From positions 1 to 64,000 of IMG/VR virus record IMGVR_UViG_3300043015_002491: a stretch of DNA of 64,000 nt; one strand, 5' to 3'. Shown piece after piece: positions 13,453 through 58,387 of the stretch. A program made the position numbers and the translations under genes. Each line of letters opens with the position of its first letter. The stretch's first letter is position 1. The notes below the pieces were generated by a model. The model did not search any database. It worked only from the letters and a program-made list of their open reading frames with translations, and was not told the origin of the DNA. This stretch comes from a virus.

Positions 13453-14439
13453 TTATAATTTATTTAATTGGTCCATCTTTTTAGCTTGGTTCTTTTTCTT
13501 TAAATTTTTAATTTTATCATAATGACCAGCTTTTTTGTTTTGTTTAAGAGCTTCAGCGGCTTCTGAACCAGCTGGTTGACCGCCATGTAACAATAAAGCG
13601 AAATTATCATCACTACCCCATGCTAATGAATCATCAACATCTATCTTAAGACCTAACTCTTTAGCTTTTTCTGGTGTGTAAACAACAACACTATATCTAA
13701 GGTTATTATCCATGATAGTTTTTGCGTTGTTCTTATCCATTGATGCTATAAGTTTAAAATTTGATGGTACAGAACTTCTATTAGCTAACCAAAACTTTAA
13801 TGAAGTTGTATACGCATAAAATAAAGTATTAGGGAAAGCTTTAGCTGTTTCCATCCAAGCTTTAAAATAATCAGAAGAAAAGAAATCACCAGCCTCATGT
13901 ACCCTAATCAATTTTTCACCTTCTAAACCATGATATTTAATTGATTTAATTAATAAATCTTTCATACCTTCCATACCATTTTCTTTTCTGGCACCATTTA
14001 ATAAATCTAAATTTTTATGAGCATTTTTATAGGCTGCTGGGTATTGGGATTGTGCTCTTGCTGCATAACATCTAAATTCAGCTTCTTTACCTTGTAATAA
14101 TGAAGAACCATCAGAAAATTTCTTACCACCTGGTTCGGCAGCAAAAGTTTTACATGTAGTTGCTAATGGACATGTAAAACCAGCTGGTAGTGAAAAATAT
14201 GGCCAATCTAATTTAGAATTACCACCTTCACTAAATGTTAACACACAATCTTTATTCGCATCAATAGGCTCACTTATTACTTCCGAATCATCAGAACCAT
14301 CTATATGACCAAATACGTCAAAATCTTCTTCTTCAAACATATATTGTCTAATGAAATGTGTCCCACAAGAACCACCCATGACTTCATTAATTAAGTGGTT
14401 TTTCATTAAACCTTCCCTAAGCAAATTCTTAATACTCAT
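13453..14439 (-). CDS. Gp88-like (radical-SAM-like) phage protein
   Basis: FSLPAGFTCPLATTC...CYA, RVHEAGDFF and FYAYT. Confidence 0.65.
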   Translation of the reverse strand: MSIKNLLREGLMKNHLINEVMGGSCGTHFIRQYMFEEEDFDVFGHIDGSDDSEVISEPIDANKDCVLTFSEGGNSKLDWPYFSLPAGFTCPLATTCKTFAAEPGGKKFSDGSSLLQGKEAEFRCYAARAQSQYPAAYKNAHKNLDLLNGARKENGMEGMKDLLIKSIKYHGLEGEKLIRVHEAGDFFSSDYFKAWMETAKAFPNTLFYAYTTSLKFWLANRSSVPSNFKLIASMDKNNAKTIMDNNLRYSVVVYTPEKAKELGLKIDVDDSLAWGSDDNFALLLHGGQPAGSEAAEALKQNKKAGHYDKIKNLKKKNQAKKMDQLNKL

Positions 14440-14526
14440 ATTTTTTTTCTTTTACTATAAATATAAAAAAATATATAAAAAGTTTGGGTATTAAAATATA
14501 AGACGTATTGAGAATATAAAAATAAG

Positions 14527-14598
14527 TTCCCCCAGGGAATTTCGAAATCCCGACCCCTCCGTTAAAAGCGGAGTGCTCTGCCTCTGAGCTATGAGGGA
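14527..14598 (-). tRNA. tRNA-Lys(TTT)
   Basis: cloverleaf; anticodon arm CTCCG-CTTTTAA-CGGAG. Confidence 0.92.
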
Positions 14599-14626
14599 AT
14601 AAAATGCCTCTCTCGGCATCCGTCAC

Positions 14627-14730
14627 AACATTTTGTATTCTGTTAACCTATCTGAACTCTAAGACTCATTCGTCTTTTACAGACATGGACATCCATTATC
14701 AAGTTCGGGTCCTAACGGTAAAATCTTGTT
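14627..14730 (-). ncRNA. candidate 6S-like RNA
   Basis: rod-like pairing GTTA/TAAC, ACC/GGT, GAACT/AGTTC around an open centre; between tRNA genes. Confidence 0.4.
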
Positions 14731-14743
14731 AAAAACCAGTATG

Positions 14744-14824
14744 AGCGGGTAGTCAGAATCGAACTGACATCGCTGCATTGGAAGTGCAGTATAATACGCT
14801 TTCGCTCCGTTATACGATACCCGC
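14744..14824 (-). tRNA. tRNA-Gly(TCC) with expanded D-loop
   Basis: loop CTTCCAA; D-loop contains extra AGCGAAAGCG. Confidence 0.85.
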
Positions 14825-14829
14825 AATTG

Positions 14830-14903
14830 AGCCCACCACCAGAATCGAACTGGTATCTACGGTTTACAAGACCGTTGTAATAAAGCCGTTATACTAGGTG
14901 GGC
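14830..14903 (-). tRNA. tRNA-Thr(TGT)
   Basis: ACGGT-CTTGTAA-ACCGT. Confidence 0.9.
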
Positions 14904-14910
14904 TTATTAG

Positions 14911-14995
14911 TGGGAGCCGCTGGAATCGAACCAGCACCTATACAGGGCTACAGTTTTACAGACTGCCTCAACCAACCAATAGTTGACTCACTCCC
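14911..14995 (-). tRNA. tRNA-Tyr(GTA), divergent copy
   Basis: loop CTGTAAA; long variable arm; imperfect base of acceptor stem. Confidence 0.75.
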
Positions 14996-15046
14996 AAATT
15001 GACTTTTTACCTTATCCAAACGTAAGCTTAAAGTCTAACAGCGTAG

Positions 15047-15129
15047 TGGGCCTGGTAGGATTCGAACCTACACGCTCCGAAGAGACCAGATTTACAGTCT
15101 GGCGAGCCAACCAATTGCTCAACAGACCC
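15047..15129 (-). tRNA. tRNA-Tyr(GTA)
   Basis: CCAGA-CTGTAAA-TCTGG; long variable arm. Confidence 0.92.
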
Positions 15130-15134
15130 AAATA

Positions 15135-15191
15135 CAGAATGCGCTTTTATATTTACCCAAAAAATAGTTTAAATTTTGCTGAATGCATTCT
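15135..15191 (-). ncRNA. CAGCAA-family small RNA with Pro(TGG) anticodon stem-loop
   Basis: AGAATGC-ATTCAGCAA...TATTT-TTTGGGT-AAATA...GCATTCTG. Confidence 0.7.
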
Positions 15192-15195
15192 TTAG

Positions 15196-15269
15196 CTACC
15201 CAGGGAGGCCTCGAACCTCCAAATTCCACATTCAAAGTGTGGTGACTTTGCCAATTTGTCTACTGGGCA
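15196..15269 (-). tRNA. tRNA-Gln(TTG)
   Basis: CCACA-CTTTGAA-TGTGG. Confidence 0.88.
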
Positions 15270-15323
15270 ATAATGATTTTTTGTATCCTTTACCAAGAAA
15301 GCTTAAAATCTAACAGCATTATG

Positions 15324-15419
15324 TCTGGGGAATGGGATTCGAACCCATGGCAGACACTACCCTTGTGCCCGCACCACGTCCCAAGCGTGGCCACTTCAAC
15401 CTTACTCGTGCATCCCCAG
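15324..15419 (-). tRNA. tRNA-Pro(TGG) with 8-bp variable arm
   Basis: CCACG-CTTGGGA-CGTGG; variable stem GCGGGCAC/GTGTCTGC. Confidence 0.8.
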
Positions 15420-15430
15420 TTTAATTATAG

Positions 15431-15505
15431 TCGGATAGACTGGACTCGAACCAGCACAATGTCCTCATCCCAAATGAGGCGAGATACCAATTTCTCTACT
15501 ACCCG
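15431..15505 (-). tRNA. tRNA-Pro(TGG)
   Basis: CTCA-TTTGGGA-TGAG. Confidence 0.9.
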
Positions 15506-15568
15506 ATTAATTCTCAATACGTCAATGAACATTCTGATTATTTAATCTCTATCAGAAAAAAAGAGCAT

Positions 15569-15602
15569 AAAAAAACCCGTCTCAGTTTTCCTGGACGGGT
15601 TT
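15569..15602 (-). terminator. attenuator terminator of tRNA operon 1
   Basis: AAACCCGTCCAG-GAAAA-CTGAGACGGG-T7; 5' arm complementary to GGCGGGTTT (15664-15672) in the leader ORF. Confidence 0.85.
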
Positions 15603-15626
15603 CTATATCTTTTGAACCTTATGTGA

Positions 15627-15734
15627 TTACAATGTAGTTAAATCACTTTCAGTTAAACATAGCAAACCCGCCACACTCGGCTTCCCGCCTTGCGTATACT
15701 GTTTCGGTTGATATGTCGTAACTGTTAAGTTCAT
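15627..15734 (-). CDS. leader peptide 1 (MNLTVTTYQPKQYTQGGKPSVAGLLCLTESDLTTL)
   Basis: 35 aa ORF between promoter and terminator; codons 6-19 all T/Y/Q/P/K/G. Confidence 0.85.
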   Translation of the reverse strand: MNLTVTTYQPKQYTQGGKPSVAGLLCLTESDLTTL

Positions 15735-15784
15735 TTTTTCTATTTTTTAAATTATTAAATTTGTTCGTTTAATTTATATATATG

Positions 15785-15816
15785 CAAATATATGGTAAAA
15801 GTTTCAATTTGTCAAG
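15785..15816 (-). promoter_or_regulatory. Bacteroidota-type sigma-A promoter, tRNA operon 1
   Basis: CTTGAC...GAAACTTT...TATATTTG (-33/-7 TAnnTTTG); near-identical at four loci. Confidence 0.8.
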
Positions 15817-15870
15817 TATTTTTCAAAATATTTTTAAACTTTTTTATATGTGCTTGATAATCAAGTATTT

Positions 15871-16269
15871 TTATAAATTATTTTTATCCCTAGCTTTTAT
15901 CTCATCCCTAATCTTAGCTGCATCTTCATATCTTTCTTCTTCAATAGCGATTGCAAGTCTATCTTCTAGAGATATTTTCTTTTTAGTTTTAGGTGTGAAG
16001 CCAGTATCAAGTGGTGAATGAATCATTTCAACCTTAACTATTGAACCATGTTCTGTTTCCCAAACACTTCTTTTGAATTTATAACCATTCTCTTCAAATT
16101 CAGTAACTTCATTAGGTTCACCTAATTCACTTTCATATGGATTAGTAGTGTCATCATTTAATTCACTAAAGTCATTTAACTTATTTATTAAATCTCTCAT
16201 ACCTTTTAAGGGGTCATTTGATTTCTTCCCAAAGAAGTCATCAAATAAATCATCAAAATCATTAAACAT
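15871..16269 (-). CDS. UVR (UvrB/C) domain protein
   Basis: C-terminal LAIAIEEERYEDAAKIRDEI; likely start MFNDFDD. Confidence 0.7.
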   Translation of the reverse strand: MFNDFDDLFDDFFGKKSNDPLKGMRDLINKLNDFSELNDDTTNPYESELGEPNEVTEFEENGYKFKRSVWETEHGSIVKVEMIHSPLDTGFTPKTKKKISLEDRLAIAIEEERYEDAAKIRDEIKARDKNNL

Positions 16270-16952
16270 AATATTATTTTTTATTTTTGTTATACGATTA
16301 ATTGTACAAAATAGATACCATTTATTTTTTTCTGCCAATATGTCTGTATCTATATCTAATAGATGTCAAAAGATACCTAAATGGATTAATTTTAAGTAAA
16401 TAGAAATATAGTCCAAATAATGAAACTGATAATAGGTAAAAAATAGAAGTGGTAATTACATAGGAATCTCCTGTCGCTTTTAAAACCATGTAAAAAAGGG
16501 CATCGTACCCTAATGGGTTCATAAACATCGCCATCATTAGAACGATTGTGGCTATTTTCTTTCTGTTTACTACCCTCATCATCCATATTGTTTAAACTTT
16601 GTGTTACCATATTATTAAAATAAGCTAGTTTGATTTGGAAGCATGTTCTTCCAATATTCAAGCTGCTCATCAAGCTTCTTAATCTTTTTGTTAATAGAAG
16701 CCCTTTCTCTTACTAATTGCTTTCTAGCTTCAGTAAGTTCTCTTAATTTATTGTTAATATCGTCTTGACTGATTGTATTATTCTCAGCTAAGATGTTTAA
16801 CTTTTCTTTAATCTTCTTTTTCATATTATATAAATATGAGCATCTTGGTTTAAATACAAAAAAGTTAAGGCCAGTGGCTACCATTCTAGATGGAGTTCGG
16901 AGATTACTATTTCACACTTAGGACCCTAAGACCTTAACCTTTATATTATTAG

Positions 16953-17022
16953 TAGTACTGCTGGGATTCGAACCCAGGTCTCCCCCTCAACGGGAGCGTC
17001 TTGACCGCTACACCACAGTACG
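16953..17022 (-). tRNA. atypical tRNA-like gene (loop GTTGAGG, nominal TGA)
   Basis: T arm CTGGG-TTCGAAT-CCCAG and acceptor GTACTG/CAGTAC; non-canonical anticodon loop. Confidence 0.55.
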
Positions 17023-17107
17023 ACTCTAAGGGAGCGACCCCTAGAGTAAGGAATGTTAGATACTAAGCTTTGGGAGCGACCCATCGCATCATACCCACTA
17101 CCCCTAG

Positions 17108-17232
17108 TCGGAAGGGCTAGATTCGAACTAGCATCAAGTGGTTCCCATAGCTTTTAAATTGCTGAACTTAACCTTTTAAAACAGATTAATCTTTTTGCAT
17201 TACCACCGCCTCACCAGTTGGGCTACCTTCCG
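17108..17232 (-). ncRNA. tRNA body with anticodon loop replaced by ~60-nt CAGCAA module
   Basis: acceptor CGGAAGG/CCTTCCG, D and T arms intact; GTGGT/ACCAC stem encloses TTAATCTG-TTTTAAA-AGGTTAAGTTCAGCAA. Confidence 0.7.
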
Positions 17233-17277
17233 TTTAAAAGGAAGTGTTGTTAAAACGTTTTACCGCACCATTAATAT

Positions 17278-17340
17278 CAGAGTGACTTTTACGTAAATCA
17301 AATTAAAAGTTTGAGCGTTAAAAATTGCTGAAATCACTCT
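17278..17340 (-). ncRNA. CAGCAA-family small RNA with Lys(TTT) anticodon stem-loop
   Basis: AGAGTGA-TTTCAGCAA...TCAAA-CTTTTAA-TTTGA...TCACTCTG. Confidence 0.7.
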
Positions 17341-17364
17341 TTATATTCCTAATATTTTTGATAT

Positions 17365-17482
17365 CAGAATGGGACTTAATACGTGCTCTACCAATTGAGC
17401 TACTTGCCCAGAAGGACAAGGCTGGACTCGAACCAACAACAACGAGCTTAACAGGCTAAAATTTAATTGCTGTAGCCATTCT
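17365..17482 (-). ncRNA. CAGCAA-family RNA with circularly permuted tRNA(Asn)-like module (YrlA-like)
   Basis: AGAATGG-CTACAGCAA, AGC-CTGTTAA-GCT, T arm, acceptor closed by loop (CTTGTCC-TTCT-GGGCAAG), D arm, CCATTCTG. Confidence 0.8.
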
Positions 17483-17746
17483 TTATATATCTTATCTAAT
17501 CTCTCAAAGAACTATGGTACAAACTTACAACTTATTTTTTAATTATGCAAGTTTTTTTTTTATTTTTTTTTAAGATTTTTATTACCCTTTGTATGGATAG
17601 GGTCAAAAGGGCAATGCCTACAACCACTCCCACAACATATAGACCTACGTTTTAAGTAGGATTCTGTATATATTATTTTGCCATTCTCTAAATAATAATC
17701 TTTACCTTCTTCAAATCTAAAATCACTCATATTAATTAATATTTAG

Positions 17747-17819
17747 TGGAGCCACCGATACTCGAAATCGGAACTGCTGGTTGCAAACCAACTATTATCA
17801 CCACTTTAACTATGGCCCC
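17747..17819 (-). tRNA. tRNA-Ala(TGC)
   Basis: loop TTTGCAA; GGGGCCA/TGGCTCC with G3:U70. Confidence 0.88.
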
Positions 17820-17953
17820 AGTTTTGTTAGATTTCGTACCGTTATCACACTTCAGTACAAGTCACTTTCAATTTATCTAACACACTTCCTATGCTGGCTA
17901 ACTGGGTTATTTAAGCGAAATACGCCCCCAGCGCCTTTATGTGACACCGTTAG

Positions 17954-18030
17954 CGGTCTAGGAGGGTTTCGAACCCTCGTTTTAGAGCAGAGACAGTGCA
18001 ATTCCCCCCACCATGGGGGCTTACTAGACC
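17954..18030 (-). tRNA. tRNA-Asp(GTC), divergent copy
   Basis: loop CTGTCTC; acceptor GGTCTAG/CTAGACC; unusual D arm. Confidence 0.65.
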
Positions 18031-18085
18031 GTGCACTAACTAAGGGGGATGATTAAGCCCCAATCAATTGTCGTAGTTAGTAAAG

Positions 18086-18158
18086 CGGACGTGACGGGAG
18101 TTGAACCCGCTCCGAACTGCGTGACAGGCAGACATCTTAACCGTTTGACCTCACGTCC
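18086..18158 (-). tRNA. tRNA-Asp(GTC)
   Basis: CTGC-CTGTCAC-GCAG. Confidence 0.85.
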
Positions 18159-18232
18159 GTAATTGATAGTCTTTCCTATCAGTCATACTCAAAACTCCCA
18201 CTGGTCGTAACTCCAGTTATAGAGAGCGTTTG

Positions 18233-18317
18233 TAATGCGGACGGGGTTCGAACCCGCAATACCCAAGAGGGTCCAGATTGAAAGTCTGGTCGCTTAAACC
18301 AATTTGCATACCGCATC
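18233..18317 (-). tRNA. tRNA-Glu(TTC) with long variable arm
   Basis: CCAGA-CTTTCAA-TCTGG; variable arm ACCC-TCTT-GGGT. Confidence 0.8.
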
Positions 18318-18322
18318 ATATG

Positions 18323-18396
18323 TAACCCAGACGGGGCTCGAACCCGCAATCTCCACAGTGAAAGTGTGACGACTTAACCAGTTTGTCCACTGGGTC
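18323..18396 (-). tRNA. tRNA-Glu(TTC)
   Basis: CACA-CTTTCAC-TGTG. Confidence 0.88.
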
Positions 18397-18431
18397 AAAT
18401 TAAACCAAAATGTCAAAGAACTATTCTTTTG

Positions 18432-18503
18432 TGCGACCCCTCAGATTCGAACTGAGACCTCCTGGGCTTCAACCAGGCGAGCTACCATTAACTCCAGAGC
18501 CAC
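18432..18503 (-). tRNA. tRNA-Phe(GAA)
   Basis: CCTGG-TTGAAGC-CCAGG. Confidence 0.85.
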
Positions 18504-18513
18504 ATATGGGCAT

Positions 18514-18544
18514 AAAAAAAGGCCCTCCGTTTCGGGAGAGCCTT
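18514..18544 (-). terminator. attenuator terminator of tRNA operon 2
   Basis: AAGGCTCTCCCG-AAA-CGGAGGGCC-T7; 5' arm complementary to GGGAGAGTC (18594-18602) in the leader ORF. Confidence 0.85.
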
Positions 18545-18574
18545 CTTATCTAAGCTTTTATGTTTTTATAACAT

Positions 18575-18667
18575 TTAACTTATGACAATACTTGACTCTC
18601 CCAGGCTAAAATCGGCCTCAGCAAACGCTTCAAAAGCAAAATCAAATATGTTGTTAAATGTTCTCAT
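18575..18667 (-). CDS. leader peptide 2 (MRTFNNIFDFAFEAFAEADFSLGESSIVIS)
   Basis: 30 aa ORF; codons 8-20 all F/D/A/E. Confidence 0.85.
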   Translation of the reverse strand: MRTFNNIFDFAFEAFAEADFSLGESSIVIS

Positions 18668-18716
18668 TATTTCTATTTTTTAAATATTAAATTTTTTTGT
18701 TTTAATTATATATATG

Positions 18717-18748
18717 CAAATATAGGTCTAAAGTTTCAAAAAAGCAAG
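18717..18748 (-). promoter_or_regulatory. sigma-A promoter, tRNA operon 2
   Basis: CTTGC...GAAACTTT...TATATTTG. Confidence 0.8.
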
Positions 18749-18793
18749 TATTTTTACAAATTATTTTTAAAATTTTTTTTAATTACTTCATTA

Positions 18794-19738
18794 TCAACGA
18801 TTTAATTTTTTTACTCCTCTACCAAATAATTCAGATTCTTTTTCTCTTCTAGATTTTAGACCTGGATGTTTCTCAAATGATTTTTCACTAGTAGTCTTTA
18901 TTTTTTCTTTAGCCTTTTCATATTCACCCCTTTTAACTAATTGTATAAAGTCAGAGTTTCTAAAACCACTTCTACCCATATTAAAAGCCATAGATACCAT
19001 AGCATCATACATATCTTGGTTGATTGTATATTTAATACCTTTCTTGTCCCAACGTGATAAAACATCATTAATAACCTTTTCAGCATAAGCTAAATCATTT
19101 TTAAATAACTCTTCAGCAGTTTCTCTAGAAATTACTTGACCTAATTTAAACTTAGACCTTCTAATTTTTTCAGCATGCCCCCAACCAATTGTGATTGCAC
19201 CATCACCAAGTTTATAAGCTTTAAGTACTGGTTCACCCTTATGTTTTATACTACCTTCTTCATACTTAAGGTGATTTATTAAATTTTGTGATGCTTTAGT
19301 AGGTTTAGCTACTCTATTGTCTAATTCTTTATTAACTTGATTTTCTTTTTCACTACTAACTCTTTTAACTGGCGTTGAAGTTTCTATTGATGTTAATATA
19401 TCTTGTTTTATATCTGGCGCATTAGCACTTAATAACGAACTAACCGTGTTTAATGATAATAAACCCATTAAACTAATACTCACATATTTTACCATTTTTT
19501 TTCTAAACCCAGATGGGATATTTTTGGTCTTATTTAATAAAACTTCTAAGAATCTTTCACCTTGTGTTGGTGAATGAATGGTTGACATGGTTTTTTCAAG
19601 TTGATTTTTTGTTAAATCCCATTCAAATGTTCTAGACTCTTCTTCGTTTTCACATATTAGTATTAAATCATTTAAACTATTTTCAAATAACCTAGTTTCT
19701 AATTCTTCTCTTAACAAATTTTCTATTAGATGTTTCAT
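18794..19738 (-). CDS. phage lysozyme (GH24) with N-terminal extension
   Basis: EEG..AYK.GDGAITIGWGH, DAMVSMAFNMG and GLKSRREKESELF; likely start MKHLIENLLRE. Confidence 0.88.
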   Translation of the reverse strand: MKHLIENLLREELETRLFENSLNDLILICENEEESRTFEWDLTKNQLEKTMSTIHSPTQGERFLEVLLNKTKNIPSGFRKKMVKYVSISLMGLLSLNTVSSLLSANAPDIKQDILTSIETSTPVKRVSSEKENQVNKELDNRVAKPTKASQNLINHLKYEEGSIKHKGEPVLKAYKLGDGAITIGWGHAEKIRRSKFKLGQVISRETAEELFKNDLAYAEKVINDVLSRWDKKGIKYTINQDMYDAMVSMAFNMGRSGFRNSDFIQLVKRGEYEKAKEKIKTTSEKSFEKHPGLKSRREKESELFGRGVKKLNR

Positions 19739-19792
19739 ATTATATAAATATAACCCAACCATTCAAAAATTGTATAGTACCTTAATTTTTAG

Positions 19793-19874
19793 TGACCCTG
19801 GTGAGACTCGAACTCACACGCCTTTCGGCAGAGGCTTCTTAGACCCCCCTGTATACCAATTCCAGCACAGAGCC
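19793..19874 (-). tRNA. tRNA-Leu(AAG)
   Basis: GGGGT-CTAAGAA-GCCTC; Leu-type D loop and variable arm. Confidence 0.8.
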
Positions 19875-19879
19875 ATAAA

Positions 19880-19963
19880 CAGGTTGAGTTTTACGGGATT
19901 GAACCGCTTCGTTTTGTTTTGCAGACAAAATTTTAACCATTTAAAGTTTGCTGTACTCAACCT
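19880..19963 (-). ncRNA. CAGCAA-family RNA with Cys(GCA) anticodon arm and T-arm remnant
   Basis: AGGTTGAG-TACAGCAA...TTTGT-CTGCAAA-ACAAA..GCGG-TTCAATC-CCGT..CTCAACCTG. Confidence 0.75.
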
Positions 19964-19967
19964 TTAG

Positions 19968-20056
19968 TACGGAGGGCGGGATTCGAACCCGCAGATGTAT
20001 CTTACGTGTGCCGTGGGGTCTAAGCCCACCGACTTTACCAGTTTGTCCACCTCCGC
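19968..20056 (-). tRNA. tRNA-Leu(TAG)
   Basis: GTGGG-CTTAGAC-CCCAC; long variable arm. Confidence 0.82.
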
Positions 20057-20061
20057 ATTTG

Positions 20062-20144
20062 TACTCCCGCCCAGACTCGAACTGGGATTTACTTCACGTC
20101 TCTTCCATGTAAAAGAAGGATGTTACCAATTACACCACAGGAGC
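20062..20144 (-). tRNA. tRNA-Val(TAC), variant with expanded variable region
   Basis: loop TTTACAT. Confidence 0.7.
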
Positions 20145-20150
20145 ATTTTG

Positions 20151-20240
20151 TAGCGGGAGCTGGATTCGAACCAGCGAAATCAGATTCACTCTGCCTCTGG
20201 GTTATGAGCCCAGCGAGCCGACCAACTGCTCTACCCCGCA
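20151..20240 (-). tRNA. tRNA-Met(CAT), initiator-like, long variable arm
   Basis: CTGGG-CTCATAA-CCCAG (three G-C pairs); 1:72 mismatch. Confidence 0.8.
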
Positions 20241-20247
20241 ATATTAG

Positions 20248-20438
20248 TTGCCACGGTAGGAATCGAACCTACTGCCTCTCCCCTATGAACGGGAGCGAGC
20301 TTTGAACAAATTTAACAAACTCCAAACTATTCATGTTTAACCAGAAGTCCCCTTAACATGTGTCGGTTATTCCATATTAAACAATCCAAGCCCTTTTAAA
20401 ATTAAACCTTGGCATGTTCTCCAATGCTCTACGTGACT
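20248..20438 (-). tRNA. tRNA-like gene (CAT) with >100-nt insertion in the D-loop
   Basis: acceptor GTCACG/CGTGGC; D stem GAGC/GCTC separated by a long insert; intact T arm. Confidence 0.6.
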
Positions 20439-20449
20439 AAGTTTAGCCG

Positions 20450-20535
20450 TAGCCAGAGTGGGACTCGAACCCACACGCCCCTTTCGGAGCAAGGGATTTT
20501 AAGTCCCTCGTGTCTACCAATTCCACCATCTGGCC
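20450..20535 (-). tRNA. tRNA-Leu(TAA)
   Basis: AGGGA-CTTAAAA-TCCCT. Confidence 0.92.
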
Positions 20536-20559
20536 ATATTTTCAAAGAACACTTTGTTG

Positions 20560-20635
20560 TTGGGATAGAGGGATTCGAACCCCCGACCTTCTCGGTGTAA
20601 ACGAGACGCTACTGAACCAACTGAGCTATATCCCA
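20560..20635 (-). tRNA. tRNA-Val(TAC)
   Basis: CTCG-TTTACAC-CGAG. Confidence 0.9.
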
Positions 20636-21398
20636 ATGTGCTAGGTTTTACCCTAGCTTTATAAATCTTTCATTTTTGATGGCTTTACTTATCCATCTTG
20701 CTAATTCAGAACCTCTGATTTTAGCATCAAATGTAGTTGTACCTAAATCTGAAGATAACTTTAGCGTTTGTATTTCTTCTCTTTCAAACGAATCAGTTTC
20801 AATTACTTCTTCAACTGTTGCTATTGGGAATTGATATAATTCGTCCATAATCACAACATTGTAATATAAATTACCAGCAATATAGTGACTAAATGTAGCC
20901 ATATTCTTAGACTTCATTAAGTCTTTTTTTATTTCTATTTCATTAAACATAACCATTCTCTTTTTTCCATTTTTCATGCATCATATTAATCGTATGGTAA
21001 GGACTTCCTTTACCTTCAATAATTTCTTCGAACCCATTTTCTTTAGTAATAAGAGATTCTCCATATTCAATAGTACCCTTAAATTTACTACCATAACTAC
21101 TAGATTGAAGTGTTTTTGTTGCTGGGTCTACATCACCCCAAGAACTTCTCCATCCTCTAGGTTTAAGATACTCAATAAAATATTGTTTACCTGTTTCTGG
21201 ATAAAATACCACTTCTCTTCCAGTTTCATCTCTGTTCACTAAGAACTCTTGCCTACTAATTGTTTTCATTTTTTCTTTTTTAAAAACCTTGTTATTATCA
21301 TTAACCAATTAACATTATTTTTTTGTCCCTTAGTTAATCTTTCTCTTGTTCCTTCTAAATTACCTCTTAAAATTTCTTTTACCATTTTATTTTTTTAG

Positions 21399-21469
21399 AG
21401 GCGGGAGAGGGAATCGAACCCCCGTAAAAGCTTTTGCAGAGCTCCACCTAACCACTCGGTCATCCCGCC
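21399..21469 (-). tRNA. tRNA-Cys(GCA)
   Basis: AGCT-CTGCAAA-AGCT; U73. Confidence 0.88.
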
Positions 21470-21485
21470 ATTAATTTTTAAACAT

Positions 21486-21519
21486 AAAAAAAGTCCGACT
21501 CGTTTTACTGAATCGGACT
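21486..21519 (-). terminator. attenuator terminator of tRNA operon 3
   Basis: AGTCCGATTC-AGTAAAAC-GAGTCGGAC-T7; 5' arm complementary to GGTCGGACT (21560-21568). Confidence 0.85.
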
Positions 21520-21545
21520 CTCTGTTTATCTTATTTTTATTCAAG

Positions 21546-21626
21546 TTAAGACACAACACAGTCCGACCAGTTTACCACTAGTAAACATAAGTTAAGGACT
21601 AATAATATGTTGTTTCTTGTAATCAT
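21546..21626 (-). CDS. leader peptide 3 (MITRNNILLVLNLCLLVVNWSDCVVS)
   Basis: 26 aa ORF; 10 of codons 8-18 are L/V/C. Confidence 0.82.
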   Translation of the reverse strand: MITRNNILLVLNLCLLVVNWSDCVVS

Positions 21627-21656
21627 TGAATTTTTCTTTGTTTTTAAATATATATG

Positions 21657-21688
21657 CAAAGTTACTATAAAAGTTTCAATTTGTCAAG
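21657..21688 (-). promoter_or_regulatory. sigma-A promoter, tRNA operon 3
   Basis: CTTGAC...GAAACTTT...TAACTTTG. Confidence 0.8.
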
Positions 21689-21723
21689 TATTTTTATAAA
21701 AAAGTTTTATTTTTTTTTGTAAT

Positions 21724-22431
21724 TTAAGAATACCTCATCTTAATTATTCTAGCTATTATGTTGAATAGCTGTTCTTTAGACCTACCTTCACGTCTTTTTA
21801 AAAAGTCATTAATTAAGTCAGAAATTCTCTTTTCTTTTTCTCTTCCCATCTGATATTTGTATGATATTACATCGAAAAGACTCATAAAATAATATCCATT
21901 AAGTTCGGTAGCCCTATCAAGTATTGTATCACTATCATCCACCTTAGTATCTGTATAATCACCGCCAGCTCTTTGTGGAGCCCATTCGTCAAACGCTTCA
22001 ATGTCCATTTGAGTTAAACCTAATTCATTTGGTCTGTAAATACCCTTCTCATAATTAGAGATAAATTTATCCATATCAACCTTACCGTTTAGGTTTGATT
22101 TTAAAATTTCCCAATTTTCTTTATTAGGTACTACCACATCTAAGTCACCTGGCTCTAATGGTATTTCTTTACCACCAAATTGTTCAGAAATCTTATTAAT
22201 AAATTCTGGTAAACCATCATACATATAAAGTCTTGCAGAACCAGATATAAAGTATTTTTTATCAGATGGTTTTATACCAAATGCTTTAAATAATACGTTA
22301 TCAGATTCTTTAATTAACCTCATTAATTTATTATTAGCCTCATCAAGTATCATCGTTTCTTGTAATGCTTTTTCCAAATTAGTCCAAGCATCTCTAATCA
22401 TCATTTCTTCATATAAGTTAGATAACTTCAT
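21724..22431 (-). CDS. putative nucleotidyltransferase-fold protein
   Basis: ISGSARL...GDLDVVV (GS...DxD). Confidence 0.5.
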   Translation of the reverse strand: MKLSNLYEEMMIRDAWTNLEKALQETMILDEANNKLMRLIKESDNVLFKAFGIKPSDKKYFISGSARLYMYDGLPEFINKISEQFGGKEIPLEPGDLDVVVPNKENWEILKSNLNGKVDMDKFISNYEKGIYRPNELGLTQMDIEAFDEWAPQRAGGDYTDTKVDDSDTILDRATELNGYYFMSLFDVISYKYQMGREKEKRISDLINDFLKRREGRSKEQLFNIIARIIKMRYS

Positions 22432-34970: not shown

Positions 34971-36789
34971 ACTAAAAATTCTTTAAATTTATTTTTCAAT
35001 TCTACCTCTGTTAAGTAAGTTTCAAGTTTTACCTTAGTTTCGTAATTTTCATTTTCACGCTCTAAAATATCATATGATACAATATCTTGTGGGAACTTAT
35101 GGCGTAATTCAATAAAGTGTTTAACACTTAACTCATAACCCTTAATTTCTTTACCTTCTTGATTAGTTCTATAATAAATAATACTATTTAAATAAATTGA
35201 CCTAATGGCATCTAACTCTTCATCTAACATAATATCTAATATCTCATCTATGGACATATTTAACCCTAAATATCTTAGAACCATATTTTTAATTTCATTA
35301 GGGATTGTTGAGAATGCTAGTGTTTCAATATCATATATTTTATGTAATCCAGCATCTTCCAATTCAAATCTTAATTCACTAGAATCTATGGTAACCCCTA
35401 TGAAGTTATCATCATCATAAAAAATATGGAAATCAAATAAGTCTAACGATGGTAAATAACCATCATCAGACAAAGGAATGTGTGTTACTATAATATTCTT
35501 AACGTTTATCATGTAACAAATATAATAAAAAAAATGAAACCTACAATGAAAAAATTAAATTATTTTCTTTTTTTTCTAGATTCTTCTAATAATTCTTCAG
35601 CTGTATCACTTAAATGTTTAGGCATAACACTAATTAAATCCATCTTCTCATCATCATTAGCATTCTTAAAAACACTTAACATGATGTCATCACTAGGTAA
35701 TTCATTAAAAATATCCGCAAGTTCTATTGGTTCCCCATTATCAGTTTCAAATCTATTACTAGTTTGATAAAAATGTACCTTCTCACCATTAGATAATTTC
35801 ATCTTTTTAAAAGATTCTTTCTTTTCTTTAGCTCCAACATTTTTTTCTTTAGACCATCTTCGTAACCCATCAATTGTTATAGGTCTTTTTTCAGTACCGT
35901 AATCACCACTATTAACAAATTCAATTAACTTTTCATATGGAATAACATAATCGTATTGACCTTTAACTATATGTTTCCAAAATAAAGTTGTGATGACATT
36001 ATCCTTAACCACTAACACTAGTAAATGACCTGGTAGGTCATTATTTGGTTTTATTGGTTCTTTAGAGTCATATATAATAATACCCAAGTCTCTACCAAAA
36101 GAATCACCAAATTCTAAGCTTTCAATAAAATCAATCCTTTCATCAATTATTTTTTTACCTTCATCACCTATTTGGTCTAGTAAAGCAGTAATCCTTTCTG
36201 GATACCTTTGTTTAACAAAATGCTTTATATCCTTTATCGCTTCTAATAATCTTTGTCTAATAAATTCTTTCATTACTCACCTTTTAATATTTGTTTAAAC
36301 TTTCTAAGTTGTTCTTTTATTACGTTTTTAGCTTTAAAACTAGGACCCTTTTTGTTTATCGGTACTTTCACAGTTTTGGGTGACTTATCACCACCATTAA
36401 CATTAATAGTATATTTTCTATTATCCTTAAAGGTAATTTCGTTAAATTCTTTATCCAACTGATTTATTTCCATCTTAAGCTTAGGACCATCAGCTGAGAT
36501 AATTCTATGTATTTGAACATCCCCTAGATATTCACCTTGTATAATATGATTTAACTCGGCTTCTTTTCTTTTTTGTTTACCCGCAGAAACCCAGTCATTT
36601 CTAATACCAATAACCTCACAATCACCACCTACAGTAGCACTCATAAGGTCATCATTGTACTGTCCACCAGACTTTCCACATTCACATTTTCTCCATTTGG
36701 TGTGAATTAGTCTAACTACGTCATCACAATTTTTACAGATAATTAACTTCATATTATATAAATATATTGAAACACGCAAAAAGATGAAG

Positions 36790-36879
36790 CGGAAGACAAG
36801 GGAATTGAACCCTCGGACCGCTCAAGGCGGCCAACGCATTAGCAGTGCGCCCCGACTAACCAACATTCGGCTATCTTCC
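36790..36879 (-). tRNA. tRNA-Ser(GCT)
   Basis: CGCA-CTGCTAA-TGCG; long variable arm; G73. Confidence 0.88.
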
Positions 36880-36884
36880 AAGTA

Positions 36885-36951
36885 CAGGATGGTTTTTTTA
36901 CGTAATCAAATTAGAAGTTTGGTCGTTAAAAATATTTGCTGAACCCATCCT
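36885..36951 (-). ncRNA. CAGCAA-family small RNA with Arg(TCT) anticodon stem-loop
   Basis: AGGATGG-GTTCAGCAA...CAAA-CTTCTAA-TTTG...CCATCCTG. Confidence 0.7.
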
Positions 36952-36955
36952 TTAG

Positions 36956-37028
36956 TACCCCTACAGGGATTCGAACCCCGATTCTCGGCTTAGAAGGCCG
37001 ATGTCCTATCCAATTGAACGATAGAGGC
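36956..37028 (-). tRNA. tRNA-Arg(TCT)
   Basis: TCGGC-CTTCTAA-GCCGA. Confidence 0.9.
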
Positions 37029-37133
37029 ATTTTGGTGAGAGGCTTTGGGTTAGATAAACCTCAATATTACATGAGAGACCCCCTAGAATGCATCACCATT
37101 GTGTGAGAACGTCTAAACGTTCCCGACTTTTAG

Positions 37134-37208
37134 TACACCTAGAAAGAATCGAACTTTCAATCTCTCAGTTCGTAGCCGAGTGCTTTAAATCCGTTAAGCT
37201 ATAGGTGT
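37134..37208 (-). tRNA. tRNA-Arg(ACG)
   Basis: CTCGG-CTACGAA-CTGAG. Confidence 0.88.
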
Positions 37209-37216
37209 ATATTAAG

Positions 37217-37286
37217 TACCGACTGTGAGGTTCGAACTCACTTAACCGTCCATATGAAGGACTGTTCTTTTCCACTAAGTGTCGGC
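37217..37286 (-). tRNA. short tRNA-Met(CAT)-like with reduced D arm
   Basis: GTCC-TTCATAT-GGAC; T arm present. Confidence 0.6.
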
Positions 37287-37317
37287 ATGTCGCTACTATT
37301 CGACCTATCAATATTTG

Positions 37318-37389
37318 CTCCTTGGGGGAATTTCGAAATCCCGACCTATCGCTTAACAGGCGATTGCTCTACCTCTGAGCTACCAAGGA
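37318..37389 (-). tRNA. tRNA-Asn(GTT)
   Basis: ATCGC-CTGTTAA-GCGAT. Confidence 0.9.
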
Positions 37390-37446
37390 ATAATTGTTTA
37401 TAGTTGGCCAAAACTAGTAAATAAATTAACTTTTGGCTGATTATAG

Positions 37447-37519
37447 TGGGCCCACTGAGACTCGAACTCAGAACAACTGATTATGAGTCAGCCGTTTTAA
37501 CCACTTAAACTACAGGCCC
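37447..37519 (-). tRNA. tRNA-Ile2/Met(CAT)
   Basis: CTGA-CTCATAA-TCAG; GGGCCTG acceptor resembles Ile2. Confidence 0.82.
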
Positions 37520-37523
37520 TTTG

Positions 37524-37613
37524 TACTGGTGGTGAGATTCGAACTCACGTTTGGTAACAACCTCAAGAACCGCTACGTTTCTCCAAGATATAAGCTTGGG
37601 ACGCTACACCAGC
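37524..37613 (-). ncRNA. tRNA-like RNA with Ile(TAT) anticodon hairpin displaced into the D-arm position
   Basis: acceptor GCTGGTG/CACCAGT; T arm GTGAG-TTCGAAT-CTCAC; CCAAG-CTTATAT-CTTGG inside the GCGT/ACGT stem. Confidence 0.55.
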
Positions 37614-37692
37614 ATTTGTAGAGTAGGTGGGGTATTCTCCCACAATAAAGGGTCATAGTCCAGCGGTTTGTAGTTTGAACCTACTATTCTAG

Positions 37693-37778
37693 TTGGTAGG
37701 GTGGGACTCGAACCCACATTGTGCTTTCGCACCCAGTGTATCAGACTGGTCCCTGTAAACCAATTCGGGTACCTACCA
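37693..37778 (-). tRNA. tRNA-Ile(GAT) with long variable arm
   Basis: CCAGT-CTGATAC-ACTGG; variable arm GTGC-GAAA-GCAC. Confidence 0.8.
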
Positions 37779-37785
37779 ATATTAA

Positions 37786-37875
37786 TGGCGGAGAGAGTGG
37801 GACTCGAACCCACACACCTCTAGGGCCTACGGTTTTCAAGACCGTTGCAGTTAGACCTACTCTGCTTACCTCTCC
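37786..37875 (-). tRNA. tRNA-Ser(TGA)
   Basis: ACGGT-CTTGAAA-ACCGT; CCA encoded. Confidence 0.9.
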
Positions 37876-37884
37876 GAATAAAGT

Positions 37885-37969
37885 ACCCCATTGTAGGATT
37901 CGAACCTACGGTCCCCTAAAGGGACACCCGTTACACACGGGTCGCATTAAGCCACTCTGCCAAATGGGT
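37885..37969 (-). tRNA. Ser-like tRNA body with anticodon loop TGTGTAA
   Basis: GGCAGAGTGGCTTAATGCG D arm and long variable arm; ACCCG-TGTGTAA-CGGGT (G33). Confidence 0.6.
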
Positions 37970-37976
37970 CACTTTG

Positions 37977-38049
37977 CACTGCGTTAGAGAATCGAACTCT
38001 ATCCATCCGAGGTTTTGGAGACCTGGCGCATACCATTATGCTACGCAGT
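37977..38049 (-). tRNA. tRNA-Trp(CCA)
   Basis: AGGT-CTCCAAA-ACCT. Confidence 0.85.
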
Positions 38050-38127
38050 ATGTGTTTCAATACGTCAAAGAACATATCGGTTTAAAAGCCGATATTATCA
38101 ATTATCTGTTATTAATCAGATAACCTT

Positions 38128-38203
38128 TGGGGTGCACGAGGAATTTCGAAATCCCGACCTTCCGAATCACAGTCGGATGCTCTGCCTCTGAGCTACGTAC
38201 ACC
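38128..38203 (-). tRNA. tRNA-His(GTG)
   Basis: TCCGA-CTGTGAT-TCGGA; G-1, C73 and CCA encoded. Confidence 0.92.
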
Positions 38204-38388
38204 ATATTTAAAGAACTACGAAGAATACAACCTTTCCCCTTTCTTTTTTTATTTTTATTTCACCATTATAGCCTCCGTCTTCAGCTTTCTTTTTATACTT
38301 GTCGTAGATGGTATCAAAGTCTTTCTTAACTTCTTTTTCTTTTTCTACCCCAAGTTTTCTAACTCTCTCTTCCATAATAATCGGACAT

Positions 38389-38422
38389 AAAAAAAGCCCG
38401 ACCAGTTTCCGAGTCGAGCTTT
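38389..38422 (-). terminator. attenuator terminator of tRNA operon 4
   Basis: AAAGCTCGACTCGG-AAA-CTGGTCGGGC-T7; 5' arm complementary to GAGTCGAGT (38471-38479). Confidence 0.85.
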
Positions 38423-38455
38423 ATATTATTTTAGTTTTTTTATTTACATCACAAC

Positions 38456-38539
38456 TTAAATAATGGACATACTCGACTCATTTAGAGAATTACGTCTCCA
38501 ATTACTAATCGAATTTCTATGTATGTTCATTGTTCTCAT
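38456..38539 (-). CDS. leader peptide 4 (MRTMNIHRNSISNWRRNSLNESSMSII)
   Basis: 27 aa ORF; codons 4-18 all M/N/I/H/R/S/W. Confidence 0.85.
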   Translation of the reverse strand: MRTMNIHRNSISNWRRNSLNESSMSII

Positions 38540-38574
38540 TGTTATAAAATTTTCTTTGTTTTTAAATATATATG

Positions 38575-38606
38575 CAAATATATGATAAAAGTTTCAATTT
38601 GGCAAG
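38575..38606 (-). promoter_or_regulatory. sigma-A promoter, tRNA operon 4
   Basis: CTTGCC...GAAACTTT...TATATTTG. Confidence 0.8.
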
Positions 38607-38632
38607 TATTTTTATAAAAAAATTTTAAAAAA

Positions 38633-39223
38633 TTATTTTAAACTATAAAATCTTGTTGGAACTTCTTCCTTTGAAAGTTTGAAACTTAAGTTTTTACATA
38701 ACTTTTCAAAAGTTTCAGCAACTTCTTTACCTTGTTGTGACATTAGTGGATTATGATTAGTTTTAAATGACTTTGAGTACGTATATTTTATAGCATCTCC
38801 TTCATCAACACCATCAAAGATACAGGTTGTATCGTTATATTGAAACATGATTTGTCCAGATTCATATAATTCACTTGATGAATTAACTTTAGGGTCCCAA
38901 TATTTACCTCGACCTTGTGTTGAAGGTGTATCTTTGTCTACGAATCTAACTATAACATCTGAAAAAGCTGGCTTCACTTCAAATTCAACATTTCCTAATG
39001 CTTGGTCTCTGTATTTTTTAAACTTATTTACAAAATTACTTATTTGTGGGTTTCTTAACAATTCTTCATATTGCCTTTTCCAATGTTTGAATCTATTTTC
39101 ATCTATGTTGTTCACAGTTACTTCATCATATGACTCATTTATTAATCCCTTTGAAGCAAGGTATCTTTGTTCGGCTAACATGTTAGCCTTTTGTATGTTT
39201 AATTTCTTATCAAATTTTCTCAT
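38633..39223 (-). CDS. hypothetical protein, MRKFDKK-leader family
   Basis: shared N-terminus MRKFDKKLNIQKANMLAEQRYL. Confidence 0.7.
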   Translation of the reverse strand: MRKFDKKLNIQKANMLAEQRYLASKGLINESYDEVTVNNIDENRFKHWKRQYEELLRNPQISNFVNKFKKYRDQALGNVEFEVKPAFSDVIVRFVDKDTPSTQGRGKYWDPKVNSSSELYESGQIMFQYNDTTCIFDGVDEGDAIKYTYSKSFKTNHNPLMSQQGKEVAETFEKLCKNLSFKLSKEEVPTRFYSLK

Positions 39224-52561: not shown

Positions 52562-52701
52562 AATAACTTTTTTTTTTTATTTTTAATTATGGTACAAATA
52601 TACCACCTTTATTTTAAATTGTCAAGTAAAAACGAAAAAACCCTCACTAGGAGGGTTTCTTAATTTCCATCTGGCGAAATCAGAATGGAATGCTTGAGCA
52701 G

Positions 52702-53070
52702 TGGAGTTGCTCGGATTCGAACCGAGGTCTTACTTACTCATAAAGAGCTTTCTACATGCTTATCTGGTTTCTAATTCCAGCAAAGTTTAACAGTTCCCTT
52801 ATTTTAGTAGTTCGTTTTACTGATAACTAATCTTCTACCCTTATTTTAACACCTTTGGTTGGTCGTTCCTGTGGGTTTCCCCAGTGCATTACTCTGTTAG
52901 GCGAATGCTACCTCTCCTACACCTACTTCTACAGAAGCAGTGTCAAGGAAGTTTTCAGCGATGTCAAATTCGTTTCCATCTAAAAATTTGATAGGTAATT
53001 AAAGTGTTTCCAATCTAACACTGCATGCTTACTAATCACGACTATAAGCAATCAATAGCCAGTCAACCCC
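52702..53070 (-). ncRNA. ssrA: tmRNA
   Basis: 5' GGGGTTGACTGG and 3' CTCGGTTCGAATCCGAGCAACTCCA with G3:U70; tag ORF 52897-52977 ending AFA-stop. Confidence 0.9.
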
Positions 53071-57964: not shown

Positions 57965-58387
57965 TTACTCATTATTACTATTATTATTACTATTATTATT
58001 ACTATTATTATATTTTTCCCTAGCCCTAGAACTAATCATTTCTGGGTCACCATCTTCATCGAGTCTAACAAATACAAGTGTATTATTAGCTATTAATTTT
58101 TGTTCCCCAGAATAAGGGTTGTGTCTCCTAACTTCTATTTCGATAGTCACTGAAGTTCTACCTAATTTAACCACTTCACCGTAAATTTTTACGATTCGGT
58201 TAACCTTAACCTTTTTATTAAATGAGACCTCACCAAATTTAGCTGTAACCACTCTTGGTGTGTCAGCAGCTTCAGCTGCCAAGATTCCCCCAGCTTCATC
58301 CATCCAACCTAGTAACTTACCACCGAAAAGATTTCCATGTGTTCCTAAGTCAGATTCCTTAACAATTCTTGATGTTATTAGTTCCAT
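57965..58387 (-). CDS. acyl-CoA thioesterase (second copy)
   Basis: DLGTHGNLFGGKLLGWMDE and GRTS. Confidence 0.85.
   Translation of the reverse strand: MELITSRIVKESDLGTHGNLFGGKLLGWMDEAGGILAAEAADTPRVVTAKFGEVSFNKKVKVNRIVKIYGEVVKLGRTSVTIEIEVRRHNPYSGEQKLIANNTLVFVRLDEDGDPEMISSRAREKYNNSNNNSNNNSNNE

Follow-up and report, generated by a model that had tools for sequence, protein, structure and literature searches.

A putative leader-peptide attenuator ahead of a Phe-Glu-Asp-Ala tRNA block in a phage genome

The locus described here lies in a virus record of 122,509 bp with a G+C content of 31% (IMGVR_UViG_3300043015_002491), whose first 64 kb constitute the stretch of DNA referred to below as the window. 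ARAGORN identified 31 tRNA genes and 1 tmRNA gene, all on the minus strand. On this strand, a promoter-like block is followed by an ATG-initiated open reading frame (ORF) of 30 codons, a hairpin with a U7 tract, and a tRNA-Phe gene that opens a tRNA block at 17746..18503. As determined by both ARAGORN and Rfam, the block is composed of tRNA-Phe (18431-18503), two tRNA-Glu genes (18322-18396 and 18232-18317), tRNA-Asp (18085-18158), and tRNA-Ala (17746-17819), all minus strand. The neighbors are phage-like, i.e., a Phage_lysozyme domain protein (18794-19762), a GP88 family protein (13453-14439), and, after the tRNA block, a DUF5522 protein (17560-17730). The original prediction for this locus had placed tRNA-Phe about 10 nt past the U tract, and the ARAGORN start at 18503 and the end of U7 at 18514 indeed leave a gap of 10 nt. 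It had also described the array as Phe-Glu-Glu-Asp-Asp-Ala; the order Phe-Glu-Glu-Asp-Ala was recovered by default ARAGORN and by Rfam, while the second Asp gene did not hold up, being called only after the ARAGORN threshold was relaxed, in the form of an odd, degenerate 78-nt tRNA-Asp-like sequence at approximately 18030..17953 (minus strand). This 78-nt sequence sits in a highly structured 266-nt spacer that separates tRNA-Asp from tRNA-Ala. Parts of the stretch were present in 24 sequencing runs, 2 of which are metatranscriptomes, each with 12-15% of the words.

Several other RNA-like elements were noted around these genes. The segment at 17382-17444 (minus strand), which lies between tRNA-Ser and the DUF5522 ORF, matches the Y RNA-like family YrlA below threshold, scoring 42.3 bits where the cut-off is 69 (E 6.6e-7). 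An odd tRNA-like gene at 14750-14819 (minus strand) scored 30.7 bits with the Rfam tRNA model and was called by relaxed ARAGORN as an 82-nt tRNA-Ser; in a simple fold, it shows a loop of 7 nt whose anticodon would be that of a Gly tRNA (UCC), and 2 Gly codons occur in the adjacent leader. Another such gene, detected by ARAGORN only, is a 97-nt tRNA-Pro with a long extra arm at 15323-15419 (minus strand).

The leader ORF spans 18667..18575 on the minus strand (30 codons plus the stop codon) and is the sole ATG ORF of 15-60 codons that ends just ahead of the terminator at 18514..18546. As had been claimed, codons 8-20 (18608..18646, minus strand) are 13 consecutive Phe, Asp, Ala, or Glu codons; they read FDFAFEAFAEADF and specify 5 Phe, 4 Ala, 2 Asp, and 2 Glu residues. 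All codons of this putative regulatory run are readable by the array anticodons GAA, GTC, TTC, and TGC under standard wobble rules. When the 122,509-bp contig was translated in six frames (245,014 translated positions), this 13-residue run proved to be the longest Phe/Asp/Ala/Glu run, with the runner-up reaching 8.

Downstream of the ORF, ViennaRNA predicts an intrinsic terminator, made of regions 3 and 4 and the U tract, at 18514..18546 on the minus strand, with the hairpin at 18546..18517 (loop at 18534..18529; -18.2 kcal/mol) and U7 at 18520..18514; this hairpin escaped a simple terminator scan, whose stem rule takes in some of the T run. Region 2, the 5' half of the candidate antiterminator, is located inside the ORF at 18593..18603 (codons 22-25, minus strand) and is predicted to pair with the 5' arm of the terminator. 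The proposal that GGGAGAGTC pairs with the terminator arm was thereby confirmed at the level of complementarity, with GGGAGAGTC lying within 18603..18593 and the 5' arm containing GGCTCTCCC. The 2:3 duplex has a predicted energy of -18.5 kcal/mol compared to -9.1 ± 2.3 kcal/mol for shuffled ORF sequence (z -4.0); the energy was matched by 1 of 300 shuffles and, in a second shuffle run, by 0 of 200. Candidate region 1 (codons 7-12, 18634..18649, minus strand) is predicted to pair with region 2, with a 1:2 duplex energy of -11.8 kcal/mol that was equaled by 41 of 300 shuffles and is thus no better than chance; the 1:2 pairing was clearly better than shuffles in just 1 of the 4 units of the contig. 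The full-length minimum-energy fold combines 1:2 with the terminator (-46.3 kcal/mol, z -4.2 versus shuffles).

Ribosome positions were then mimicked by static folds, in which the transcript was cut before the 3' arm of the terminator and a ribosome mask was laid over the A-site codons. With masks at A-site codons 8-18, the 2:3 duplex stayed formed, and with masks at codons 19-20, region 2 was covered. Even without a ribosome, the truncated transcript folded into 2:3, and the mask of a ribosome at the stop codon did not cover region 2. Because static folds keep 2:3 with both naked RNA and a stop-codon ribosome, the OFF state would depend on kinetics and steric effects. The distance of 10 nt between the U tract and tRNA-Phe has no space for a promoter of the array's own, so the array would have to be transcribed by read-through; a second promoter past the terminator was ruled out on the same ground.

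A motif scan placed a promoter common to four tRNA units at 18708..18749 on the minus strand. It consists of an upstream CTTG (about 18747..18744), a conserved GAAACTTT (18737..18730), a TAnnTTTG box (18724..18717), and a conserved block (18717..18708), all on the minus strand, and transcription probably starts near 18710. A sigma-70-style scan also marked 18732..18705, with 10 of 12 positions matching. When the 25-nt promoter motif was searched with up to 2 mismatches, 4 matches were found in the 122.5-kb contig, all on the minus strand and each upstream of a short ORF and a terminator preceding a tRNA block, compared to 0 matches for a reversed control pattern. Scans of viral contigs with the promoter pattern, in a collection that may leave out the window's own genome and its near copies, gave 21 and 1 single matches with no tRNAs at any of them, which we read as chance. 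The TAnnTTTG box, with TTG about 20 nt upstream, is reminiscent of the Bacteroidota housekeeping promoter (-33/-7 consensus), and the units of LR745206.1, a phage genome introduced below, carry a similar box. The phage host is probably a member of the Bacteroidota; a SusC-like gene is noted in LR745206 by PMC9723777.

The three sister units share this promoter and lie on the minus strand. The unit at 15569..15822 (35-codon leader, 15734..15627; terminator, 15603..15569) precedes Pro-Pro-Gln-Tyr-Tyr-Thr-Lys, that at 21486..21694 (26-codon leader, 21626..21546; terminator, 21522..21486) precedes Cys, two ORFs, and Val-Leu-Met-Val-Leu-Leu, and that at 38389..38612 (27-codon leader, 38539..38456; terminator, 38422..38389) precedes a 55-amino-acid ORF and His-Trp-Thr-Ser-Ile-Met-Asn-Arg-Arg-Ser. 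With a gap rule of at most 1,000 nt, 30 of the 31 tRNA genes stand behind one of the four leaders. Residues belonging to the leader's own array made up 16 of 34 in 15734..15627, 15 of 29 in 18667..18575, 13 of 25 in 21626..21546, and 24 of 26 in 38539..38456; scored against the other arrays, the contig leaders mostly had 1-3 such residues, and 10-11 against the eight-amino-acid set of the His block. The 55-amino-acid ORF of the last unit, at 38208-38375 (minus strand), is rich in Lys and Glu and lies between the His-block terminator and tRNA-His, a position in which it would be co-regulated with that block. All four terminators of the contig have T7 followed by ATG (the bases immediately past each U tract lie at 15569-15566, 18513-18511, 21485-21483, and 38388-38386), as do one unit of LR745206.1 and the metagenome contig L062 described below; this T7-ATG may reflect processing, a start signal, or common descent.

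The correspondence between leaders and arrays was examined in two further public megaphage genomes, LR745206.1 (GenBank, 634,780 bp), reached via a tRNA match, and LR756502.1 (642,428 bp), reached via the lysozyme. Units were collected by a scan blind to composition, which called an ATG ORF of 15-60 codons at most 45 nt before a hairpin (-9 kcal/mol or lower) plus T6, with a tRNA within 250 nt; for match scoring, the most upstream ORF was kept per terminator. The scan took in 8 of the 13 loci of the two LR genomes, leaving out L050-L052 (LR745206.1) and L059 and L060 (LR756502.1), all single tRNAs; no leader-terminator unit was found at these single tRNAs or at the first Met tRNA of L047 (LR745206.1). 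It returned 4 units in the contig, 7 in LR745206.1, and 7 in LR756502.1. For all 18 leaders, the leader's own array was the top-scoring array of its genome. The true pairing was the single best of 24, 5,040, and 5,040 within-genome permutations in the contig, LR745206.1, and LR756502.1, respectively, and in 300,000 random pairings drawn across the 18 units the observed score was never reached. According to PMC9723777, LR745206.1 and LR756502.1 are related; their units are therefore not independent, and the within-genome permutation tests are the clean ones.

The leaders also follow the arrays where tRNAs are grouped differently. Phe is grouped with Glu, Asp, and Ala in the contig and with His and Lys in the LR genomes, and Tyr is grouped with Pro, Gln, Thr, and Lys in the contig and with Glu in the LR genomes; in both cases the leaders follow. 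LR756502.1 also has an array of 4 Gln tRNAs, and the leader in front of it contains 7 Gln codons in a row. Alignment of the 18 leaders gave an N-terminal consensus Met-x-Thr-x-Asn-Asn-Ile, present in at least half of the sequences, and a mean column identity of 21%; the central segments have no features in common except that each mirrors its own array. The shared N terminus suggests one ancestral leader that may have been duplicated and re-spelled.

Position and structure were examined in the same 18 units. The best complement to the 5' arm of the terminator falls just past the control codons, around codons 16-31, in all 18, and it lies inside the ORF or at its end in 16. The terminator arm begins 21-36 nt past the stop codon, a range that is partly imposed by the scan rule. 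The 2:3 duplex beat 95% of shuffles in 11 of the 18 units (median z -2.5), the remaining 7 individually not doing so, and the four units of the contig have the strongest 2:3 duplexes of the set (z -2.9 to -5.0). Nine terminators that were inspected closely are all canonical, with energies of -11.8 to -20.3 kcal/mol and U6-8.

Arg codons provided a view of the match below the level of the amino acid. In leaders whose arrays hold an Arg tRNA, 12 of 12 Arg codons are readable by the Arg isoacceptors of the leader's own array. Two Arg/Ser units with only ACG or TCG anticodons use CGN exclusively (5 of 5 Arg codons), although sampling of long ORFs in the genomes of these units put the CGN share of Arg codons at 7-9%. 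In the two units whose Arg anticodons are TCT or CCT, all 3 Arg codons are AGA, and the His-block unit of the contig, which has both anticodon kinds, uses AGA three times and CGT once, with CGN accounting for 8% of the Arg codons of the contig. The match is weaker for Ser: AGT codons occur in the Arg/Ser leaders, where the sole Ser tRNA found has a TGA anticodon that cannot read AGT. Of 55 Arg, Ser, and Leu codons in total, 40 match when strict wobble is applied and 44 when wobble is permissive.

An orthologous unit was found in the metagenome contig L062, directly downstream of a lysozyme with 75% amino acid identity to that of the window. It has the same type of promoter, a 30-codon leader, Phe, Glu, a gap, Asp, Ala, and the same DUF5522 ORF. 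The L062 leader differs from that of the window at 3 of 93 nt, of which two changes are synonymous and one replaces Ile with Lys at codon 29; the segment from the stop codon to the U tract is identical at 59 of 60 positions, with all stem positions unchanged. Nucleotide identity between the two contigs is 97-98% for the leader and terminator, 82% for the lysozyme gene, and 76% for the promoter and 5' UTR, compared to 59-68% for the four tRNAs (Phe, Glu, Asp, and Ala; L062:3067-3658 versus 17746-18503 of the window). The switch region is far better conserved than the tRNA genes behind it, and the tRNAs seem to turn over or diverge much faster than their switch. Among more distant relatives, the 16 viral loci found by the lysozyme (37-54% identity) had no arrays, 2 of them having a lone tRNA-Ala without a leader, and five parent records of these lysozyme-found viral loci had no tRNA at all. 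Among the 24 metagenome loci found by the lysozyme, 23 (at most 54% identity) had 0-1 tRNA, and only L062 was informative. The cultured Bacteroides phage DAC19 has a 3-tRNA array, Gln-Met-Leu, without a leader or terminator.

Altogether, these observations support the original prediction of an attenuator: all of its sequence-level features are present save a convincing 1:2 pairing, the leader-array match extends to 18 of 18 units, and for Arg it reaches the level of the codon. In our judgment, the unit is quite probably a ribosome-mediated leader-peptide attenuator that would switch on the tRNA block upon slow decoding of the block's own codons. Transcription would begin at the unit's own promoter, and a ribosome would translate the 30-codon leader. 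When the Phe, Asp, Ala, and Glu codons are read fast, the ribosome would pass region 2 (codons 22-25) and reach the stop codon; region 2 would be unavailable, the 3:4 hairpin with U7 would form, and transcription would end 10 nt before tRNA-Phe. If instead a cognate tRNA is in short supply and the ribosome stalls in codons 8-18, region 2 would be free to pair with the 5' arm of the terminator, and the 2:3 duplex would block the terminator and let RNA polymerase read into Phe-Glu-Glu-Asp-Ala. The product is the kind of molecule whose shortage would stall the ribosome, and the circuit would thus act as a negative-feedback supply control for a set of tRNAs, with four such circuits predicted in the contig, one per tRNA block. 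Because the 1:2 pairing is at chance level and the static masks yield no OFF state, we favor a variant in which region 2 would be kept occupied not by region 1 but by the translating ribosome itself while regions 3 and 4 are made.

As for the signal, we favor a shortage or depletion of host tRNA during infection: the circuit would top up the tRNA set if the host supply is short, depleted, or cleaved, and would turn off once phage tRNAs accumulate. The same hardware could also serve amino acid starvation or general translation stress sensed through uncharged tRNA, with the arrays forming part of a starvation response. Charged-tRNA levels fall on amino acid starvation, and the trp, his, and ilv leaders respond to them, so that classical attenuators of the same design give this reading a precedent; moreover, the sequence results here do not separate a lack of tRNA from a lack of charging. 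Extra tRNA, however, does not relieve a shortage of amino acid, which would make the feedback pointless, and the choice of Arg codons follows the isoacceptors rather than the amino acid, as fits the sensing of particular tRNA species. On these two grounds, we favor usable cognate tRNA as the quantity that would be sensed and regard starvation as an unlikely signal.

The decoding sensor was also weighed against two readings in which nothing is sensed by the leader. Were the ORF incidental or untranslated, the hairpin would be a leaky, constitutive terminator or would serve in processing or insulation, and the codon run would have no sensing role; the chance-level 1:2 pairing and the 7 of 18 antiterminators that are individually non-significant fit such an account, but it leaves unexplained why the own array is best for 18 of 18 leaders, why the 13-codon run is unique, why Arg codons split between CGN and AGA, and why a leader and terminator conserved at 97-98% stand beside tRNAs at 59-68%. 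We find it very hard to credit. Fainter still is the prospect that the small ORFs encode functional peptides, e.g., small regulators or membrane peptides, each with its terminator, and that the tRNAs are expressed by unrelated read-through. The N-terminal consensus Met-x-Thr-x-Asn-Asn-Ile among the 18 leaders and the almost unchanged L062 ortholog would agree with a peptide function, but the central segments are alike only in mirroring their arrays, with a mean column identity of 21%, and the isoacceptor-specific choice of codons would be left unexplained if the peptide were what mattered. For the leader at 18667..18575 itself, a chance ORF and a stand-alone peptide gene were both rejected. 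The conservation and the codon-level tuning, as read from these sequences, would be hard to explain except as properties of a decoding sensor. More tentatively, and with real doubt, we extend this to megaphages, which may possess a modular, self-correcting tRNA supply, each block being switched on by stalling on the codons that it reads, down to the isoacceptor.

In amino acid operon attenuators, the position of the ribosome chooses which structure forms; those of enterobacterial ilvGMEDA, ilvBN, and thr are multivalent, and trpL, hisL, pheL, and leuL belong to the same class. The phage unit is like them in having a promoter, a short ORF with a cluster of control codons, and mutually exclusive antiterminator and terminator structures directly before the genes that would be regulated. 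It differs in its output, which is tRNA genes and then the DUF5522 ORF rather than biosynthetic enzymes, so that the product is the sensed molecule, in the number of amino acids per leader (up to 8), in region 2 lying inside the ORF, in a 1:2 pairing without support, and in its setting, a phage, probably of Bacteroidota. Escherichia coli pheST, with its pheM leader, is a leader-peptide attenuator that governs a component of the translation apparatus and responds to the decoding of Phe codons; unlike the phage unit, it controls a protein (a synthetase), senses one amino acid, and is a host gene. T-box riboswitches work without an ORF, the tRNA itself binding to the leader RNA. They resemble the phage unit in a terminator/antiterminator switch that ties translation-related genes to the state of a specific tRNA, whereas the control codons of the phage unit are carried by an in-frame ATG ORF. 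A T-box reading was rejected, as Rfam gave no T-box matches at E <= 1 in 14000-22000 or 36000-39000. In Mycobacterium tuberculosis, small Cys-rich ORFs are said, in work by Barth and colleagues from 2021, to report the cleavage of tRNA-Cys by VapC4. There, as would be the case here, stalling on a short ORF reads out the depletion of one tRNA species; unlike the phage unit, the VapC4 system is a host stress circuit with protein-gene outputs and no terminator switch before tRNA genes.

Searches with the Rfam leader families gave none at E <= 1 for 18514-18748. In the His-block unit (~38.4 kb), sub-threshold matches were obtained to Thr_leader (RF00506; 22.8 bits against a cut-off of 55) and Trp_leader (RF00513; 20.4 against 41), and over the terminator Rfam returned sub-threshold, chance-level matches only, i.e., RefA9 (27.9 bits against 49) and ctRNA_p42d (23.1 against 50).

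tRNA genes are usually taken as constitutive or growth-rate controlled, and the reason for tRNA carriage by phages has been a question for 50 years. No published account of leader-peptide attenuation of tRNA genes was found in the full-text literature, subscription journals and supplements excepted, and passages of PMC3082878, PMC10264068, and PMC9723777 do not mention it. If the proposed mechanism is true, these would be the first attenuators with the sensed molecule itself as output, and the reach of leader-peptide attenuation would grow to include RNA genes as outputs, phages, and probably the Bacteroidota. The phage would gauge decoding capacity codon by codon and make tRNAs on demand; its tRNAs would then answer a shortage that is sensed, for instance when host tRNAs are depleted or cleaved, instead of providing static compensation for codon usage. 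In this manner, a phage could detect and offset a loss of host tRNA, be it by anticodon-nuclease defenses, host shut-off, or a mismatch in codon demand, and the leaders would represent a natural, readable record of the tRNAs that each phage expects to lose. They would also supply compact, programmable sensors for individual tRNA species.

Two other elements related to translation or codon repetition were noted elsewhere in the window. The tmRNA gene, at 52701-53070 on the minus strand, encodes a 26-residue tag ending in Ala-Phe-Ala, according to ARAGORN, and a 39-nt trinucleotide repeat at approximately 57972-58011 would specify 13 Tyr or 13 Leu residues according to frame.
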